From: a virus
Lineage: Duplodnaviria > Heunggongvirae > Uroviricota > Caudoviricetes
Length of the DNA: 4,330 bases
Virus record (IMG/VR): IMGVR_UViG_3300029104_000077
Coordinates: 1-4,330 of that record
Strand: one strand, 5' to 3'
Shown: positions 1-4,330 of the stretch, in pieces
How the letters are laid out: each line of letters opens with the position of its first letter
Position numbering within the stretch: position 1 is the stretch's first letter
The notes under the pieces: generated by a model
Database searches by the model: none
Seen by the model: the letters and a program-made list of their open reading frames with translations, nothing else
Told to the model about the DNA's origin: nothing
Made by a program: the position numbers and the translations under genes

Positions 1-630
1 GCAAAAAATGACCCGTTAACAGTTGACCCGTCAAATATTGACCCCTCAACGGTTGGCCCGTCAAATTTTGATGGATCAACGGTTGATAAAAAACTGCCGG
101 TCAGGGGGGCGATGATTGACCCCGATCCGTCAGTATTAAAACCTGATCCGTCAGATAAAAGATCTTCTTGTCCGGACGTTTCACTGCCGGACGAAAAACA
201 ATCATCACCAGTTGAGCGATTTCTGGAGAAACACCCGGATGCGCATACCTGGAATGTACCGAAGCGACAGTGGGGTACCCGTGAAGATGTCGCCTGTGCG
301 CAGTGGATTTGGGGACGGGTTGTGGCGTTGTATGAACAGGCCGCCAGTGATGATGGTGAGGTGTCACGCCCCCGAGAACCTAACTGGACGACCTGGGCGA
401 ATGATGTGCGCATGATGCGTATGCTGGATGGACGTAGTCACCGGCAGATTTGTGAAATGTTTGGGCGTGTCCAGCGGGATTCGTTCTGGGTAAAAAACAT
501 CATGAGTCCGGCAAAACTCCGGGAAAAATGGGATGAACTGGTTATCCGCCTGGGGCGTTCGCCCGCGCAGCGTTGCGTGAATCACATTTCTGAACCGGAC
601 ACTGAAATACCGCCTGGATTCAGGGGGTGA
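1..630 (+). CDS. Phage replication initiator (lambda O-like), C-terminal portion; 5' end lies upstream of the window
   Basis: Frame 1 is open from position 1 with no stop until TGA 628-630, so the track ORF 112..630 is only the internal-Met part of a longer gene. Positions 1-170 encode a D/P/S-rich low-complexity linker (..DPLTVDPSNIDPSTVGPSNFDGSTVD..DPDPSVLKPDPSD..) coincident with the DNA-level iterons, followed by a globular-looking C-terminal region. It sits 6 bp upstream of a DnaC-like loader gene. An origin embedded in the initiator gene is the established lambdoid arrangement; assignment by organisation, not by recognised sequence identity. Confidence 0.55.
   Translation, partial: AKNDPLTVDPSNIDPSTVGPSNFDGSTVDKKLPVRGAMIDPDPSVLKPDPSDKRSSCPDVSLPDEKQSSPVERFLEKHPDAHTWNVPKRQWGTREDVACAQWIWGRVVALYEQAASDDGEVSRPREPNWTTWANDVRMMRMLDGRSHRQICEMFGRVQRDSFWVKNIMSPAKLREKWDELVIRLGRSPAQRCVNHISEPDTEIPPGFRG
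9..98. repeat. Tandem 15-bp direct repeats (iteron-like), about 5 good copies plus a degenerate sixth; core TGACCCGTCAA with internal dyad TGAC-CC-GTCA
   Basis: Seen directly: tgacccgttaa (9-19), tgacccgtcaa (24-34), tgacccctcaa (39-49), tggcccgtcaa (54-64), tgatggatcaa (69-79), degenerate tgataaaaaac (84-94); constant 15-bp register. Each core contains the inverted half-sites TGAC/GTCA. Confidence 0.75.
9..164. other. Candidate phage origin of replication (iterons + A-rich tract + GATC cluster) inside the initiator coding sequence
   Basis: Iteron array 9-98, A-rich stretch gataaaaaactg (85-96), a second 10-bp direct repeat GATCCGTCAG at 124-133 and 145-154, and four GATC sites at 74, 124, 145 and 161. 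Location within the initiator gene just upstream of the helicase-loader gene matches the lambda ori-in-O arrangement (established knowledge). Confidence 0.6.
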
Positions 631-636
631 CGTGGC

Positions 637-1383
637 ATGAAAAACATTGCGGCAGCCGGGGTTCTTGAACGTATTCGCAGACTTGCACCACAGGGGGCGG
701 TTCCACCGTACCGGACGGTGGAGGAGTGGCGGGAATGGCAGCTTGCTGAAGGACGAAAACGCAGCGAGGAGATTAACCGCCAGAATCGCCAGTTGCGGGT
801 GGAAAAAATCCTGAATCGTTCGGGCATCCAGCCTCTGCACAGCAAATGCTCGTTTGCGAATTATCAGGTGCAGAACGACGGGCAAAAACACGCGCTGAGC
901 CAGGCAAAATCCATCGCTGACGAACTGATGACCGGGTGCACGAATTTTGTGTTCAGCGGTAAAACCGGCACCGGGAAAAATCACCTTGCAGCGGCGATGG
1001 GCAACCGGCTGATGGCGAAGGGGAGCAGCGTGATTATCGTCACCGTGTCTGACGTCATGAGTGTGTTGCATGACAGCTACGACAACGGCCAGTCCGGGGA
1101 AAAATTTTTACAGGAGCTTTGCGGGGTTGATTTGCTGGTCCTGGATGAAATAGGCGTTCAGCGTGAGACGAAAAACGAGCAGGTGGTATTGCACCAGATA
1201 ATTGATCGCCGGACAGCATCACTGTGCAGTGTCGGGATGTTAACAAACCTGAATCATGCCGCAATGAGTACGCTTCTCGGTGAGAGGATTATGGACCGCA
1301 TGACCATGAACGGTGGTCGATGGGTGACGTTTAACTGGGATAGCTGGCGTCCAAATGTCAGCAATCAGAGGGTTGTGAAGTAA
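637..1383 (+). CDS. DnaC-family replicative helicase loader (prophage-encoded DnaC paralog, AAA+ ATPase)
   Basis: 248-aa ORF with ATG at 637 preceded by GGGGG (623-627). The translation contains segments I recognise as near-identical to E. coli DnaC: NRSGIQPLH..CSF.NY, Walker A FSGKTGTGKNHLAAA, Walker B DLLVLDEIGVQ, GMLTNLN, LGERIMDRM. Size and position immediately after the initiator fit a lambdoid replication module that uses a DnaC-type loader instead of lambda P. Confidence 0.9.
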   Translation: MKNIAAAGVLERIRRLAPQGAVPPYRTVEEWREWQLAEGRKRSEEINRQNRQLRVEKILNRSGIQPLHSKCSFANYQVQNDGQKHALSQAKSIADELMTGCTNFVFSGKTGTGKNHLAAAMGNRLMAKGSSVIIVTVSDVMSVLHDSYDNGQSGEKFLQELCGVDLLVLDEIGVQRETKNEQVVLHQIIDRRTASLCSVGMLTNLNHAAMSTLLGERIMDRMTMNGGRWVTFNWDSWRPNVSNQRVVK

Positions 1384-1404
1384 TTTTTGTCGGAGGACGT
1401 TTTA

Positions 1405-2121
1405 ATGGAAACCGTATTTGACGCACTGAAAGCACTGAAAAAAGCCTCTTCACAGGTAGTGGCATCGCGCCTTGGAATCAGCCGTGAAGAGGCGGTCAAC
1501 GAACTGTGGAAACTGAAGCGCCGCGGTGAAGCGGATAACAAGGGTTCGATGTGGTGGCTGATTCAGGCTGGTGAAAGTGAACCAGTGTCACCGGTACCGA
1601 AAGTGACAGCGCAAATGCTGACAGAGGCGATTGAACAACATGGCCCACAAACGGCGGATGAACTGGCACTGATGTTCGGAATTACCTCCCGCCGGGCGAA
1701 TTCATCGCTGGCAATGGCAATCAGCAAAGGGCGTCTGATTCGCGTGAATCAGGGCGGTAAATTTCGTTACTGCATGCCGGGCGATAATTTACCAGCAGAG
1801 CCGGAAGCTGCATCCGCAGCGGAAACGGATGGTAAAGCCTTTCCTCAGCCAGCAGGAGTTGCGTTACCAGTCCAGGAAACAACGACACAGGAAGAAATGA
1901 AAACAGAAATCGAGGAAGACATTGTGAAGTTACAGCCATCGGTCACTGAAGCGAAAGCAGATGACCTGATTCTACCATCGCTGCATGTGGCTAACCGCGA
2001 GCTGCGCCGGGCGAAAAGTGATGTTCAGAAGTGGGAGCGAGTCTGTGCTGCGCTACGGGAACTGAACAAACACAGGGATATTCTCCGGGATATTACCGCC
2101 ACCAGAGAGCAGCAGCGGTGA
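1405..2121 (+). CDS. Hypothetical phage protein with two winged-helix-like segments and an acidic, coiled-coil-like C-terminus
   Basis: ATG at 1405 preceded by GGAGG (1392-1396) at 8-nt spacing, preferred over the TTG at 1387 used by the ORF track. 238 aa. Two internally similar segments ([32 protein letters not shown] and [37 protein letters not shown]) resemble HTH recognition helix plus wing; the C-terminal third is E/Q/K-rich. No family confidently recognised. Confidence 0.6.
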
Positions 2122-2435
2122 GTGGCTGGAAGAAGTGGCGCTGGGCTGAAATCCTGATACTCCGGCAGTGTGCGGGAACGATGAAAGTCGAAAGCATCGG
2201 TTATCTGATTGGCCGTAGTGAGTCAGCCGTCAGGACGAAAGCGCGGGAACTGGGTCTCAGCATGATGTTACGGGGTGATTATCACCAGTCAGCCAAATGT
2301 TCACAGCGTGATATTGAGCTGGCGCGGCAACTGCATCAGCGTGGTGTACCCCGACGGGAAATTGCCGAAAAGTTTGGGATGAAGTTGGGCGCAGTGAATA
2401 ACTACGTTTATTTCGACAGGAGGGTTCAGGAGTGA
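2118..2435 (+). CDS. Small putative DNA-binding protein with two HTH-like motifs (N-terminal GcrA-like / sigma-70 region-4-like motif)
   Basis: Frame open from 2031, but the GTG at 2118 overlaps the upstream stop (gGTGA, 2118-2121) in a coupled arrangement; ATG 2181 is an alternative start. Residues [46 protein letters not shown] resemble the W..E..L..L..G.S...IA..LG....AV..K..RLGL pattern of GcrA-type N-terminal DNA-binding domains; a second HTH-like segment is [34 protein letters not shown]. The motif begins right at 2118, which supports that start over 2181. Confidence 0.5.
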
Positions 2436-2734
2436 GGGTGAGGGTTTATATCGCCGGTCCGATGACGGGATATGAAAATTTTAACCGCGAGGCATTTCAC
2501 AAAGCGGAAGAGGTGCTGAAACGGGAAGGGCATACCGTTTTAAACCCGGCAGTACTTCCGGACGGGCTGACTCAGCCACATTACATGGATATTTGCATGG
2601 CAATGATTCGTTGTGTGGATGCGATTTACATGCTGAAAGGCTGGCAGCAGTCGGCAGGTGCAAGGGCTGAGCTGGCACTGGCGGAGAAACTGGGCCATGC
2701 GGTGATTTTTCAGGAGGTGGGCAGTGAATATTGA
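2432..2734 (+). CDS. DUF4406-like small protein (nucleoside 2-deoxyribosyltransferase-like fold), function unknown
   Basis: 100-aa ORF; GTG start at 2432 overlaps the upstream TGA (2433-2435), with AGGAGG at 2418-2423. N-terminal VYIAGPMTG..NFNREAF, then AIYMLKGWQQSAGARAELALAEKLG with a Glu in the expected position. This matches my memory of the ~93-122 aa phage/bacterial DUF4406 family with one invariant Glu, related to nucleoside 2-deoxyribosyltransferases. Not verified by search. Confidence 0.7.
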   Translation: MRVRVYIAGPMTGYENFNREAFHKAEEVLKREGHTVLNPAVLPDGLTQPHYMDICMAMIRCVDAIYMLKGWQQSAGARAELALAEKLGHAVIFQEVGSEY

Positions 2735-3026
2735 CCCGGCGATAACGATTGATATGGCCCTGAACACCGGCCTGGCGCTTCTTGGTTATTTCTACATCAT
2801 GTTCTGCAGCGGACGATGGCTGTCACTGTTGTTCATGAAAAAATGGAATAAACGCCGTAAGCAGGAGCAACGCCAGAAGGCAATGGATGCATTTTTCGAA
2901 GCCTTCGGGATTGACGGCATGGAACCAGGGGATCCAGCTCGCGCAATTAGCAGAGGGGGCGTAGTAATCCTTGTATACCGGAGTGAAGAGAAAAATGAGC
3001 GAGATCAACTATCAGGCACTGCGTGA
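2724..3026 (+). CDS. Small predicted single-pass membrane protein (hypothetical)
   Basis: GTG start at 2724 with AGGAGG (2712-2717) at 6-nt spacing, 8 nt before the upstream stop (2732-2734). 100 aa with one hydrophobic segment (ALNTGLALLGYFYIMFCSGRWLSLLF) followed by a strongly basic stretch (KKWNKRRKQEQRQK), i.e. a positive-inside single-pass topology. The last ~10 codons overlap the next gene's start, so the exact extent is uncertain. Confidence 0.45.
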   Translation: MNIDPAITIDMALNTGLALLGYFYIMFCSGRWLSLLFMKKWNKRRKQEQRQKAMDAFFEAFGIDGMEPGDPARAISRGGVVILVYRSEEKNERDQLSGTA

Positions 3027-3624
3027 GGCGGCAGTAGCAATTGAAACAGTAGCAACGCCTCAAAAATTGCTGGCATTTCGTATGAAAGTCACACCTCAGG
3101 TTGTGCTGGCGCTACTGGATGAACGAGATGCATTAAACGAACGCATAGCCGAACTGGAGGCTAATTTAGCGGAGCTGGCCGAAGACCAACAGAAAGCGAT
3201 TGAGTCAATTAAGCAGGCTGATGCGGCTGTTAAGTTGGCACACGAGAAGTTTTCGGAGCTGGCAGCGGAGAATGCGGCGCTTAAACAGTCGGAGAAGGAA
3301 TTTAATAACTTCTGTCGTCAGGAGTACTACGGTTGGGAGGACAACTTCACGGAAACCCCAGCCACCGATGCTTTTCTGGCTGAAATTCGTGCGGAAGCAC
3401 GCAACGAGGGGATTAACTATACCGCCAGCCGTCTTGCTGCTGCGTTCAATCACGGATTTATCAATAAGTCTTTGCGTGAAGTTTTCGACGTTACGCGCAT
3501 GATTCTGTCAGCGAAAGAAGAGTTGGCTAATGAACCGCATCCGATTGATGGCCTGTCTGGTGAATATGCGGAAAAATCCCTAGAAGAATGGGCGGAACAG
3601 ATTCGCAAAGGAGGCAACCAGTGA
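2995..3624 (+). CDS. Ea22-like (ead/Ea22 family) phage protein, paralog 1
   Basis: ATG at 2995, preferred over TTG 2971. 209 aa. N-terminus MSEINYQALREAA.. and the segment VTPQVVLALLDERDALNERIAELEANLAEL followed by a long coiled-coil-like region match my memory of the lambda Ea22 N-terminal module (MSEINSQALREAAE...LLDERE...). Not verified by search. Confidence 0.6.
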   Translation: MSEINYQALREAAVAIETVATPQKLLAFRMKVTPQVVLALLDERDALNERIAELEANLAELAEDQQKAIESIKQADAAVKLAHEKFSELAAENAALKQSEKEFNNFCRQEYYGWEDNFTETPATDAFLAEIRAEARNEGINYTASRLAAAFNHGFINKSLREVFDVTRMILSAKEELANEPHPIDGLSGEYAEKSLEEWAEQIRKGGNQ

Positions 3625-4330
3625 GCAAGATTGACTATCAGGTACTGCGTGAAAAGGCAGAAAAAGCAACGTGTGGTGAGTGGTCTCTCGAATATGGAGA
3701 GAGCCGATTTGATGGTGATGATGCACTAATTCATCGCGAGGCTGCTGGATATATTCCCATTTGCAGAATTGAAGGAGCGCATCCTGAAAGCGGTTTCGAT
3801 GAAGATTTCCAAATGGAACAGCAGGCCAATGCTGAATTCATAGCAGAGGCCAATCCGGCTACTGTGCTGGTACTGCTGGATGAACTGGAAGCCGCAGAGA
3901 AGCGCAACGCAAAATTACAAAGCGAGAATGCATACATCCGCAACCGGTACAAAGAACTGGACCTATTAATCGGGAAAAACATTCTTGTCATGCAGGCTGC
4001 GATTATCGAATGGCAGGCAACTGGCGACGCTAAAAGCGGACTGGCATGGATTTATAACACACTGTTTGGCCCAGGCGAGTTGCCGGACGAATCTGAGAAA
4101 GATGCTCAGGCCTACTTTAATCGCAAATATGCACCGATTGACGAAAAGCTTATGGCGCTTCACAAGTGGTTTTGGGAACAAAGTGAAGCCGAATTCGCAT
4201 CAAAGGAGAGTGATATGAGCGCTATTACCAAAGAGCGACTGCTGACAATCAGGCAGTGGCGCGAAACATACGTACCTGGTAGCAACGTTGTACTGCCAGC
4301 AGAAGAAGCGGAAGAACTGGCACGGATTGC
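3621..4330 (+). CDS. Ea22-like phage protein, paralog 2 (3' end beyond window)
   Basis: GTG at 3621 overlaps the upstream stop (GTGA, 3621-3624), with AGGAGG at 3609-3614 at 6-nt spacing. I translated the frame by hand and found no stop through 4330; it is absent from the ORF track only because it has no in-window stop. N-terminus MSKIDYQVLREKAEKATCGEW.. and ..ANPATVLVLLDELEAAEKRNAKLQSENAYI.. share the module seen in paralog 1; the rest diverges. Confidence 0.6.
   Translation, partial: MSKIDYQVLREKAEKATCGEWSLEYGESRFDGDDALIHREAAGYIPICRIEGAHPESGFDEDFQMEQQANAEFIAEANPATVLVLLDELEAAEKRNAKLQSENAYIRNRYKELDLLIGKNILVMQAAIIEWQATGDAKSGLAWIYNTLFGPGELPDESEKDAQAYFNRKYAPIDEKLMALHKWFWEQSEAEFASKESDMSAITKERLLTIRQWRETYVPGSNVVLPAEEAEELARI

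Follow-up and report, generated by a model that had tools for sequence, protein, structure and literature searches.

Ea22 proteins of phage lambda and of the Stx phages have a three-part architecture, form tetramers with a dimeric C-terminal domain (CTD) and have a pro-lysogenic phenotype, as judged on deletion (Goddard 2024, PMC10834534; Dydecka 2020). The CTD of lambda Ea22 has been solved by NMR and is a mixed alpha/beta dimer (Goddard et al. 2024, PMC10834534). Mosaic Ea22 variants (V1, V2 and V3) and the presence of two variants in one genome have been published (Dydecka 2020; Donaldson 2021, PMC8614690), and a 63-aa segment has been described in the Ea22 variants of Stx phages. The fused Ea22 of phi24B (V2, with DUF551) has been compared with the split L0069 and L0065 of 933W (Donaldson 2021, PMC8614690). 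A further determinant, Ehly2, is reported to lead to release of ClyA when cloned in E. coli (Oscarsson 2002).

Here, we analyzed a pair of adjacent genes, ORF1 and ORF2, in a 4,330-nt stretch of viral DNA (the window) and compared them with these proteins and with related loci and proteins (L and P numbers).

Results

An Ea22-like gene pair behind the replication genes

The features of the pair are collected in Table 1. Upstream of ORF1 and ORF2 are genes for a DnaC-like loader and for DUF1627, DUF977-like, DUF4406 and DUF4752 proteins, and downstream are hok, DUF968, rusA and Q. The pair thus sits downstream of the replication genes, unlike lambda ea22, which lies in the exo-xis region of the pL operon. 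ORF1 starts, with ATG, 32 nt before the DUF4752 gene ends. At least 24 public contigs encode the exact ORF1 protein in the context seen here, and L006 and L009 carry arrays of two to three Ea22-like genes behind replication genes; in the relative L001, the ORF1/ORF2 pair (96% identity) is found between anti-RecBCD and xis/int, an early-left context. ORF1 has 96% nucleotide identity to genes annotated as "ead/Ea22-like family protein" in L001 and L003. The GTG start of ORF2 was called by PGAP in L001 and L002; in L009 and by some gene callers the start is an alternative upstream ATG at 3588. No RNA family was matched within the window (Rfam), and no internal promoter or terminator signal exceeded chance between 2700 and 4330.

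Table 1. Features of the ORF1/ORF2 locus, in window positions
Feature	Position	Strand	Details
ORF1	2995..3624	+	209 aa; ead/Ea22-family protein, lambda type, without N-terminal insert (ORF list, translation)
Conserved family N-terminus MSEINYQALREAA of ORF1	2995..3033	+	shared segment 1
ORF1 hinge VLALLDE	3103..3123	+	coiled-coil start; shared segment 2; crossover point
Second hinge LAAENAALK in ORF1 coiled coil	3259..3285	+	module boundary
ORF1 C-terminal module (TPATDAFLAEIRAEARNEGINY...IRKGGNQ)	3355..3621	+	predicted helical, low confidence
ORF1/ORF2 junction ATTCGCAAAGGAGGCAACCAGTGA	3601..3624	+	Shine-Dalgarno AAAGGAGG (3607-3614); GTGA stop/start overlap; codes IRKGGNQ
ORF2	3621..4330	+	GTG start; ead/Ea22-family protein, Stx-phage type; no stop inside the window (translation)
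ORF2 insert/N-domain, about 60 aa (CGEWSLEYG...ANAEFIAEANPAT)	3660..3863	+	absent from ORF1 and lambda Ea22 (alignment)
ORF2 hinge VLVLLDE	3864..3884	+	shared segment 2
ORF2 C-terminal module (KRNAKLQSENAYIRN...WFWEQSEAE)	3897..4192	+	as in 933W L0069 (Ea22_V1) and "enterohemolysin 2"
13-nt deletion site (GCGCGCYGCTGGC)	4192..4193	+	versus L001, L002 and L009 (alignment)
Conserved 3' junction ATTCGCATCAAAGGAGAGTGATATG	4193..4217	+	Shine-Dalgarno AAGGAG (4203-4208); former ORF2 stop TGA 4211-4213; next-gene ATG
Third gene start (MSAITKERLLTIRQWRETY...)	4215..4330	+	107 aa in L002 and L010

Both proteins belong to the Ead/Ea22 family

Membership of PF13935 (Ead_Ea22; IPR025153) is defined by a match above the curated gathering score of 27 bits. 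ORF1 matched with 41.3 bits (E 2.8e-10, profile positions 57-124) and ORF2 with 74.9 bits (E 1.2e-20, profile positions 1-102), in agreement with an earlier note on this DNA that had called both genes Ea22-like. The family N-terminus MSxI(N/D)xQ(A/V)LRE is present in both: ORF1 opens with MSEINYQALREAA and ORF2 with (V/M)SKIDYQVLREKA, and the two align with the N-termini of lambda Ea22 (NP_040612; MSEINSQALREAA) and 933W L0069. The ORF1 peptide also opens these two proteins and most relatives. Both proteins also contain the P..VLxLLDE hinge that opens the central coiled coil of the family. Residues 79-134 of ORF2 were modeled by AF2 as a single long helix (pLDDT 80-90), and residues 44-124 of ORF1 gave only weak, coiled-coil-type matches in a profile search. 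NCBIfam returned only coiled-coil noise for ORF1 and ORF2, and every PHROG match was to a family of unknown function. The C-terminal (K/R)GE tripeptide of the family is missing from both, as ORF1 terminates in ...IRKGGNQ and ORF2 has lost ...IRIKG(G)E through a 13-nt deletion; intact ORF2 alleles in L002 and L009 keep this ending. In the family, this tripeptide is encoded where a conserved AAAGGAG Shine-Dalgarno/stop-start junction lies.

ORF1 and ORF2 are in the same Pfam family as lambda Ea22 and have its VLxLLDE hinge and coiled coil; ORF1 also has its short N-terminal type, and the lambda 3' junction, ATTCGCATCAAAGGAGAGTGA, equals that of intact ORF2 alleles. By contrast, the lambda CTD (beta1-beta2-alpha1-beta3-beta4-alpha2) has no sequence similarity to the C-domains of ORF1 and ORF2, which are predicted, at low confidence, to be all-helical. 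The C-domain of ORF2 aligns residue for residue with that of Ea22_V1 of Stx phages (933W L0069) and is 97% identical to that of "enterohemolysin 2" (P0045); it is the C-domain found in the Ehly2 determinant of phage C3208. The N-terminus is of the long, insert-bearing type in both ORF2 and 933W L0069/Ehly2, but the insert sequence differs, ORF2 is without their 54-aa ERNQQYIKRR... coiled-coil block, and their ...RAAGIRIKRGE end was lost in ORF2 through the deletion. The C-module of ORF1 is carried by P22 Ead/Eae-type proteins annotated as "Eae protein" or "DUF4752 domain-containing" (P0223, "Eae protein"; P0158-P0163), which differ from ORF1 in having other N-terminal modules (MKQMSLIEMDGFLKGKC..., MESNIKGLVAAGHEM...) and no PF13935 match.

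Structural models added little to these assignments. The alignments used for both proteins were deep but nearly invariant. The C-part of ORF1 was modeled with a pLDDT of 51; the ORF2 model had a pLDDT of 63.7 as a whole, 37-48 in the poorly modeled insert and 53-90 in the helices of the C-module. Foldseek found no fold match for ORF2 in the PDB (best E 8), and a sequence search of PDB chains with ORF1 and ORF2 gave no meaningful match, lambda Ea22 chains included, the weak FKBP3 match of ORF1 having an E of 0.44.

The two genes have two short segments in common

The earlier note had described near-identical starts at 2995 and 3621, and a script confirmed 27 of 33 identical nucleotides; in a repeat search this similarity extended to 39 nt at 82% (2996-3034 versus 3622-3660). 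The VLxLLDE segment that the note had seen in both genes was recovered as a second repeat of 30 nt at 80% (3102-3131 versus 3863-3892), coding VLALLDE in ORF1 and VLVLLDE in ORF2. When the codons of ORF2 were shuffled 300 times, no 33-mer matched ORF1 at more than 24 of 33 positions, and the match between the starts is therefore not due to chance. Between ORF1 and ORF2, BLASTP aligned nothing but the hinge and 13 aa at the N-terminus (9/13, E 0.004). The proposed shared N-terminal module accordingly holds for these roughly 13 residues and the hinge, but not for the region between them, where ORF2 has its insert of about 60 aa and ORF1 has none. Beyond the VLxLLDE segment the divergence is as complete as had been claimed: profile-profile comparison of the C-terminal parts found no homology (hhalign probability 0.8%). 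Exact matches between ORF1 and ORF2 run for no more than about 10 nt, a short stretch for recombination of the RecA type.

Modules are shuffled, with breakpoints at hinges and gene boundaries

The C-module of ORF2 (KRNAKLQSEN...WFWEQSEAE, about 100 aa) had 964 database matches; the best 120 were 95-99% identical and sat on 15 N-part clusters, one of them that of ORF1. In P0005 and P0112, the N-module of ORF1 is fused directly to the C-domain of ORF2 at the VLALLDE hinge. Conversely, N-domains at least 90% identical to that of ORF2 were followed by 13 C-part clusters, joined right behind the VLVLLDE hinge, and the L001 copy of ORF2 has a 54-aa extra coiled coil inserted at this hinge. The C-module of ORF1 had 1439 database matches, and the best 100 complete ones fell into 13 N-part clusters, mostly not Ea22-like. 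This module is nearly invariant across relatives, with megablast matches starting at 3353-3359. Other megablast matches start at about 3254, and in relatives with the ORF1 C-domain LAAENAALK is the point at which unrelated N-parts are joined. In L003, gene 2 follows the ORF1-type N-module as far as the VLALLDE hinge and then has a lambda-type coiled coil. These combinations support the module shuffling that had been suspected from the sequence.

Homology breakpoints fell at 2998, 3608, 3653, 3890 and 4192, that is, at gene starts, hinges and the conserved 3' junction. Homology of L002 to the window resumes at 3608, and the ORF1/ORF2 junction sequence is also found ahead of Ea22-like genes whose upstream neighbors are unrelated, as with DUF2737 in L001 and gene 2 of L006. 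The suggestion that the short shared segments serve as recombination substrates is in keeping with these data, as the segments coincide with breakpoints in related prophages. The hinges vary synonymously; their conservation may serve protein function, with their use in crossover only incidental.

Lambdoid phages are mosaics with "linkers" at gene boundaries, as in the modular theory of Susskind and Botstein and the work of Juhala et al. in 2000 and Clark et al. in 2001, and De Paepe et al. in 2014 reportedly described relaxed recombination by Rad52-like recombinases. As in these linker mosaics, short conserved gene-boundary sequences coincide with breakpoints here. Unlike gene-boundary linkers, the exchange points of ORF1 and ORF2 also lie within genes, at the two hinges, and the unit of exchange is therefore the protein sub-domain rather than the gene.

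Within modules, dN/dS against orthologous copies was 0.06-0.12, and the C-domains were 95-100% identical across dozens of differing fusion partners. The diversity of the locus therefore stems from recombination and not from the diversifying selection that the earlier note had proposed; judged from these sequence comparisons, the pattern is one of purifying selection on modules and recombination between them.

A 13-nt deletion fuses ORF2 to the next gene

Intact alleles of ORF2 end in ...ERAAGIRIKG(G)E*. The 13-nt deletion shifts ORF2 off this ending and, because it took out the usual stop, ORF2 reads in frame through the ATG of the third gene; the former stop is now out of frame. The interval 2995-4330 does not hold two complete genes: the note overlooked that ORF2 is a read-through fusion and incomplete inside the window. 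Its full length, taken from the near-identical contigs L010 (99.8% nucleotide identity) and L007, is 305 aa. L007, L008, L010 and L011 have the exact deletion junction, L001-L006, L009 and L012-L014 do not, and the fused 305-aa ORF occurs in four assemblies besides the window. The junction had no exact match in GTDB representative genomes or IMG/VR, and the allele was not found in 5,426 complete E. coli genomes, where all single-piece matches listed span 224 rather than 211 nt.

The 3' junction is identical in nucleotide sequence at the ends of lambda ea22, L002 gene 2 and L003 gene 2, despite their unrelated C-domains. In the window, the third-gene stretch doubles as an in-frame C-terminal extension of ORF2. 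The N-terminal module of the third gene also opens DUF551 proteins, among them the 280-aa one of L001, whose start it matches; the appended 107-aa module itself contains no DUF551 or other Pfam domain, and its PHROG matches are of unknown function. In phi24B/933W, as in ORF2, a small rearrangement where two genes meet decides whether the Ea22 core and a downstream module are joined or separate. The phi24B fusion carries DUF551, whereas that of ORF2 is a simple 13-nt deletion and its module lacks this domain.

Discussion

Our best explanation, to which we give a probability of about 80% with the function and fusion allele included, is that ORF1 and ORF2 are two translationally coupled Ea22 chimeras built of portable modules in the early-right accessory region of a lambdoid, E. 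coli-type prophage. The parts would be a family N-terminal helix, MSxIxYQxLRE; an optional insert of about 60 aa, present in ORF2 and missing from ORF1 and lambda Ea22; the P..VLxLLDE hinge, opening a coiled-coil stalk of variable length; and an interchangeable C-terminal domain. Prophages would reassort these modules by recombination at the conserved hinges and at gene-boundary junctions that combine a Shine-Dalgarno sequence with a stop/start overlap, and ORF1 and ORF2 would therefore be independent assemblies from a common pool of parts. In the allele of the window, the 13-nt deletion has removed the stop of ORF2 and created a 305-aa fusion with the product of the next gene.

The earlier note had also considered duplication and had pointed to diversifying selection; on such a reading, one ancestral gene was duplicated locally in tandem and the C-terminal halves then diverged fast under positive selection. 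Two adjacent genes of one family with common starts and a common hinge fit such a history, and the tandem pair of L003, which shares 133 nt at 92%, could be a recent partial duplication. Yet local duplication is improbable for the pair studied here, because ORF1 and ORF2 have only about 70 nt in common and near-identical copies of each gene occur in other contexts: L002 is without ORF1, and L003 has ORF1 beside a different neighbor. The low dN/dS within modules, the near-identity of each C-domain on other partners in many genomes and the lack of detectable homology between the two C-domains also speak against it. Still further from the data is a chance resemblance between two unrelated families, which the note had named as the outcome that would refute its view. 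The pairwise similarity is indeed tiny, but both proteins exceed the PF13935 gathering threshold, no shuffle reached 27/33, and the N-terminal peptide and hinge recur throughout the family; we give this reading practically no weight.

A third rival concerns the C-module of ORF2 only. PADLOC model PDLC02890 ("DpdH") matched residues 90-190 of ORF2 (E 4.7e-37) and all tested proteins with its C-domain, though not lambda Ea22, so that the C-module might be a relative of DpdH from the Dpd 7-deazaguanine restriction system with a role in defense or anti-defense, such as that of a decoy. The literature describes genuine DpdH as an ATPase of the replication type and calls DpdH/I BrxC-like. A helical model of 127 positions is incompatible with this description, only profile positions 13-111 aligned with both model ends unmatched, ORF2 has no ATPase domain in Pfam, its context is a prophage rather than a dpdA-K island, and none of the best 120 relatives listed was named DpdH or fell outside prophage-type proteins. 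We consider the link very improbable; the simplest reading of the label is a mislabeled or contaminated sub-model. A more serious competitor concerns the fusion alone: the deletion could mark the decay of ORF2, the long read-through ORF being accidental and functionless. The conserved ...ERAAGIRIKGE ending is lost, the gene calls derived from NCBI for L007 and L008 give no product over the fused stretch, and the allele is rare in the genome collections searched. Against this, the frame remains open for 305 aa with no more than the last 10 residues exchanged, the allele is found again in four assemblies, natural fused and split Ea22 forms with downstream domains are known (phi24B versus 933W), and the downstream gene retains its own Shine-Dalgarno sequence and ATG. 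On balance we lean away from decay but regard it as a real possibility.

Under the modular reading, homology suggests that ORF1 and ORF2 probably assemble into coiled-coil oligomers, scaffolds from which paired C-domains are presented to host or phage partners. By the same reasoning, they would act early after infection or induction and tilt the outcome toward lysogeny and host survival. This putative pro-lysogenic role is carried over from homologues in lambda and Stx phages that have other C-domains and lie in another operon (pL).

More tentatively, and with the odds against it, the N-terminal 39 nt, the VLxLLDE and LAAENAxLK hinges and the ATTCGCA(TC)AAAGGAG...TGA/start junction may together make up a standardized in-frame "socket" system, in which case the conserved pieces would be more than remnants of common ancestry. 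Lambdoid prophages would use it to exchange effector C-domains, and N-domains, between Ea22-like scaffolds of both early operons (pL and pR). Small deletions at junctions, such as the 13-nt one, would capture new C-terminal modules, and co-translated neighbors with a common N-terminal helix and hinge would hetero-oligomerize, so that a tandem array could display mixed C-domains. The (K/R)GE motif would then be the protein-level shadow of the socket, that is, of the Shine-Dalgarno sequence and coupling signal.

Ea22 mosaicism and the occurrence of two variants per genome have already been published (Goddard 2024; Dydecka 2020; Donaldson 2021); module exchange in ORF1 and ORF2 is an ordinary, previously described trait of E. 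coli prophages, and the locus is no new kind of element. What the window offers is a clear case, with its hinges mapped, of module exchange below the level of the gene, together with a mundane explanation of the C-terminal (K/R)GE motif, the embedded Shine-Dalgarno/coupling junction. The fused and split ORF2 alleles are a natural pair for asking whether appended C-domains matter. Ea22-like genes are among the most abundant mechanism-obscure genes in prophages of E. coli, Shigella and Salmonella, including Stx phages, in which Ea22 holds back lytic development and, with it, the release of toxin.

Two adjacent ORFs share their starts and an internal hinge

The earlier note had described two adjacent Ea22-like genes, our ORF1 and ORF2, with near-identical starts, a common VLxLLDE segment and a shared N-terminal module. 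The likeness is real: the start 33-mers are identical at 27 of 33 nt, a score reached by none of 300 codon shuffles (shuffle maximum 24), and a repeat search lengthened the match to 39 nt (82% identical) and recovered a second shared 30-mer, 80% identical, that encodes the VLxLLDE hinge (VLALLDE in ORF1, VLVLLDE in ORF2). The shared module is present but very short, as the proteins align only over residues 1-13 and at the hinge. Profile-profile comparison of the C-terminal parts revealed no similarity. Both proteins passed Pfam PF13935 (Ead_Ea22), ORF2 over profile positions 1-102 and ORF1 over 57-124 only, and a segment of ~60 aa between the N-terminal helix and the hinge occurs in ORF2 and not in ORF1. 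For the start of ORF2 we favour the GTG, based on the family-conserved N-terminus and the Shine-Dalgarno (SD) sequence. An in-frame ATG at 3588, 11 codons before GTG 3621 (MGGTDSQRRQPV-SKIDYQ), is the start chosen by some gene callers (related loci L003 and L009 and several database entries).

In alignments, ORF1 has the short form of lambda Ea22 (N-terminal helix, ~20-aa linker, hinge and coiled coil), and ORF2 the long form of Stx-phage Ea22. The C-domain of ORF2 is the same as that of 933W L0069, the Ea22_V1 of Goddard et al., and is 97% identical to that of a protein named 'enterohemolysin 2'. 933W L0069 and gene 2 of the related locus L001 carry a 54-aa coiled-coil block right after the hinge that ORF2 lacks.

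Features and homology breakpoints (DNA, versus other prophages) in the window
Feature	Position	Strand	Remarks
O-like initiator gene, 3' end	window start		iteron-like repeats at 15-nt spacing
DnaC-type helicase loader	after O-like gene		NF009043, E 7e-153
DUF1627, DUF977-like HTH gene, DUF4406, DUF4752	in this order after loader, before ORF1/ORF2 interval		
ORF1	ATG 2995 to TGA 3624	+	209 aa
ORF2	GTG 3621 onward	+	GTGA overlap with ORF1 stop, 7 nt past AAAGGAGG
Junction string 1	4193-4217		GGCATTCGCATCAAAGGAGAG-TGA, then (T/G)ATG; encodes ...IRIKGE in intact alleles
Junction string 2	3601-3624		CAGATTCGCAAAGGAGGMAACCAG-TGA overlapping GTG AGC RAR ATT RAC TAT CAG; encodes ...IRKGGNQ
Breakpoint	2998		ORF1 ATG
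Breakpoints	about 3175, 3254, 3353-3359		internal boundaries of ORF1
Breakpoints	3608, 3620		ORF1/ORF2 junction
Breakpoint	3653		end of shared N-terminal segment of ORF2
Breakpoint	3890		just past ORF2 hinge
Breakpoint	4192		3' end of ORF2 C-module

Modules are exchanged, probably at the shared segments

Module shuffling, which the earlier note had suspected, was borne out by database searches with three single modules as queries; the proteins returned were 90-100% identical over the query and different elsewhere. The ORF2 C-domain, in 101 complete proteins, was joined to N-terminal parts of 15 clusters; the ORF2 N-domain was joined to C-terminal parts of 13 clusters. The ORF1 C-domain was found with 13 clusters of N-terminal parts, mostly not Ea22-like, joined via a second hinge in the coiled coil, LAAENAxLK. 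Five database proteins (P0005, P0012, P0082, P0086 and P0112) combine the ORF1 N-module with the ORF2 C-domain, joined at VLALLDE, and gene 2 of L003 continues from the same N-module and hinge into a coiled coil of lambda type, followed by a third C-domain. The ORF1 C-terminal module (residues 89-209, window 3259-3621) is widespread on non-Ea22-like proteins (P0121-P0240). Its N-terminal partners include MKQMSLIEMDGFLKGKC... and MESNIKGLVAAGHEM..., in proteins some of which bear the name 'Eae protein' or 'DUF4752 domain-containing'; they join at LAAENAxLK, and a further swappable sub-module lies ahead of TPATDAFLAEIRA.

At the DNA level, the short shared segments coincide with breakpoints (2998, 3653 and 3890), in line with their proposed role as recombination substrates. 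The VLxLLDE hinge varies synonymously around a conserved CTGCTGGATGA core; its conservation therefore probably serves the protein, with crossovers taking advantage of it. Homology to the related locus L002, which has a different, frameshifted gene at this place, stops exactly at the ORF1 ATG (2998), and thus ORF1 behaves as a cassette with bounds at 2998 and 3608. The whole 1.6-kb interval was collinear in none of 5,426 complete E. coli genomes, and pieces of it were present in 2,481.

Diversifying selection, also suggested for this locus, was not supported. Against orthologous copies, ORF1 gave dN/dS values of 0.12 and 0.08 and the ORF2 N-part gave 0.06, and the C-domains of both ORFs were nearly invariant across partners. 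The modules are under purifying selection and the diversity is combinatorial.

Gene ends, possible coupling and a fusion allele

Ea22-like genes with unrelated C-domains carry one of two common nucleotide strings at their 3' ends, and string 2 also ends an unrelated DUF2737 gene upstream of the Ea22-like gene in L001. A terminal (K/R)GE tripeptide was reported in Ea22 proteins by Dydecka 2020, its significance being unknown to those authors. We found that the motif overlies an AAAGGAG Shine-Dalgarno sequence, 6-8 nt ahead of the next start codon. Lambda ea22 (L004 1040-1070, minus strand) keeps the string with no ATG after it, which fits a relic junction. Judged from these sequences, the motif may exist through translational coupling, recombination or both.

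ORF2 has no stop codon up to base 4330, and is thus incomplete in the window; it stays in frame through ATG 4215, the start of a third gene with its own AAGGAG. Alignment with L001 and L002 revealed a 13-nt deletion at 4192/4193 in the window; L009 likewise keeps the 13 nt. Through it the normal ending, ...ERAAGIRIKG(G)E-TGA, is lost and ORF2 is fused in frame to the next gene. By chance, a GAATTC site was created at the junction. Neither the GTDB representative genomes nor IMG/VR contained an exact match to this junction. Among complete E. coli genomes, every single-piece match listed had the extra 13 nt, the deletion allele being absent from these genomes. Four draft or metagenome contigs, located by exact-protein look-up with ORF1, do contain it (NCBI assemblies L007, L008 and L011 and ENA metagenome contig L010). 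Their fused ORF is 305 aa: residues 1-191 are the Ea22 part, after which come a FASKESD linker and the 107-aa downstream protein. By comparison, L009 has the intact split form and is 99.5% identical to the window over 1-4192. In related locus L013 (1839-2699), the reading frame of an Ea22-like gene that combines the ORF2 N-domain with a Cys/His-rich C-part continues across the IRIKGE junction (...AGIRIKGERCGNKTRR*), another case of junction alteration.

Genomic setting

The window, 4,330 bases long, is a piece of a lambdoid prophage operon with its genes on a single strand. In near-identical contigs the interval is followed by hok, DUF968, rusA and a Q-like antiterminator. Because replication genes precede ORF1 and ORF2 and these genes follow, the pair lies in the early-right (nin-like) accessory region. 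L006, L009 and L012-L014 likewise have two or three Ea22-like genes arrayed behind replication genes. In L001 the pair recurs, 96% identical and in the other early operon, flanked by an anti-RecBCD gene and xis/int. The DUF4752 gene (2724-3026) overlaps the start of ORF1 (2995) by 32 nt. Inside the O-like initiator gene, window 2-61 and 121-154 hold three overlapping 30-nt repeat copies, 15 nt apart, with a TTGACCCGTCAA-like core, and a CCYGATCCGTCAG pair; these are probably origin iterons. The HTH gene (GTG 2031-2435) has other alleles in otherwise near-identical prophages: window 2095-2428 is replaced by DUF977 in L002 and L012 and by a 93-aa gene in L007, another cassette-like swap.

Function and relation to published work

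Ea22 forms a tetramer, with a coiled coil at its centre and a dimeric CTD that is separable (Goddard 2024, PMC10834534; Dydecka 2020). In lambda and Stx phages deleted for it, lytic development is faster and survival and lysogeny are lower, and no partner is known. The ehly2 determinant, which carries the ORF2 C-domain, is reported to cause ClyA release and not to encode a haemolysin itself (Oscarsson 2002). Searches of PDB, NCBIfam and PHROG returned nothing informative. The predicted structure models were of poor quality, and a fold search with that of ORF2 gave no match. ORF2 residues 90-190 (window 3888-4190) matched PADLOC-DB model PDLC02890, 'DpdH', at E about 1e-37, as did the Ea22_V1/Ehly2 C-domain in every protein tested. 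We regard this label as erroneous because true DpdH is an ATPase of a BrxC-like pair; PDLC02890 seems to be a mislabelled or contaminated model, and could give false Dpd calls in prophages. The two products have the architecture of coiled-coil scaffolds with exchangeable C-domains, which we infer they would present, early in development, to targets of host or phage origin.

The three-part architecture and the insert that lambda lacks have been published, as have the dissimilar CTDs, the mosaic nature of Stx-phage ea22 genes and two variants within one genome (Dydecka 2020; Goddard 2024; Donaldson 2021); pairs of this kind already carry the RefSeq annotation 'ead/Ea22-like family protein (x2)'. 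The finding of the earlier note is therefore correct but ordinary. Fused and split Ea22 have likewise been described, in phi24B versus 933W (Donaldson 2021, PMC8614690). What we add for the family is small: the early-right location, mapped internal hinges with partner counts, a proposed SD-based explanation for the (K/R)GE motif and the fusion allele with its 13-nt deletion.
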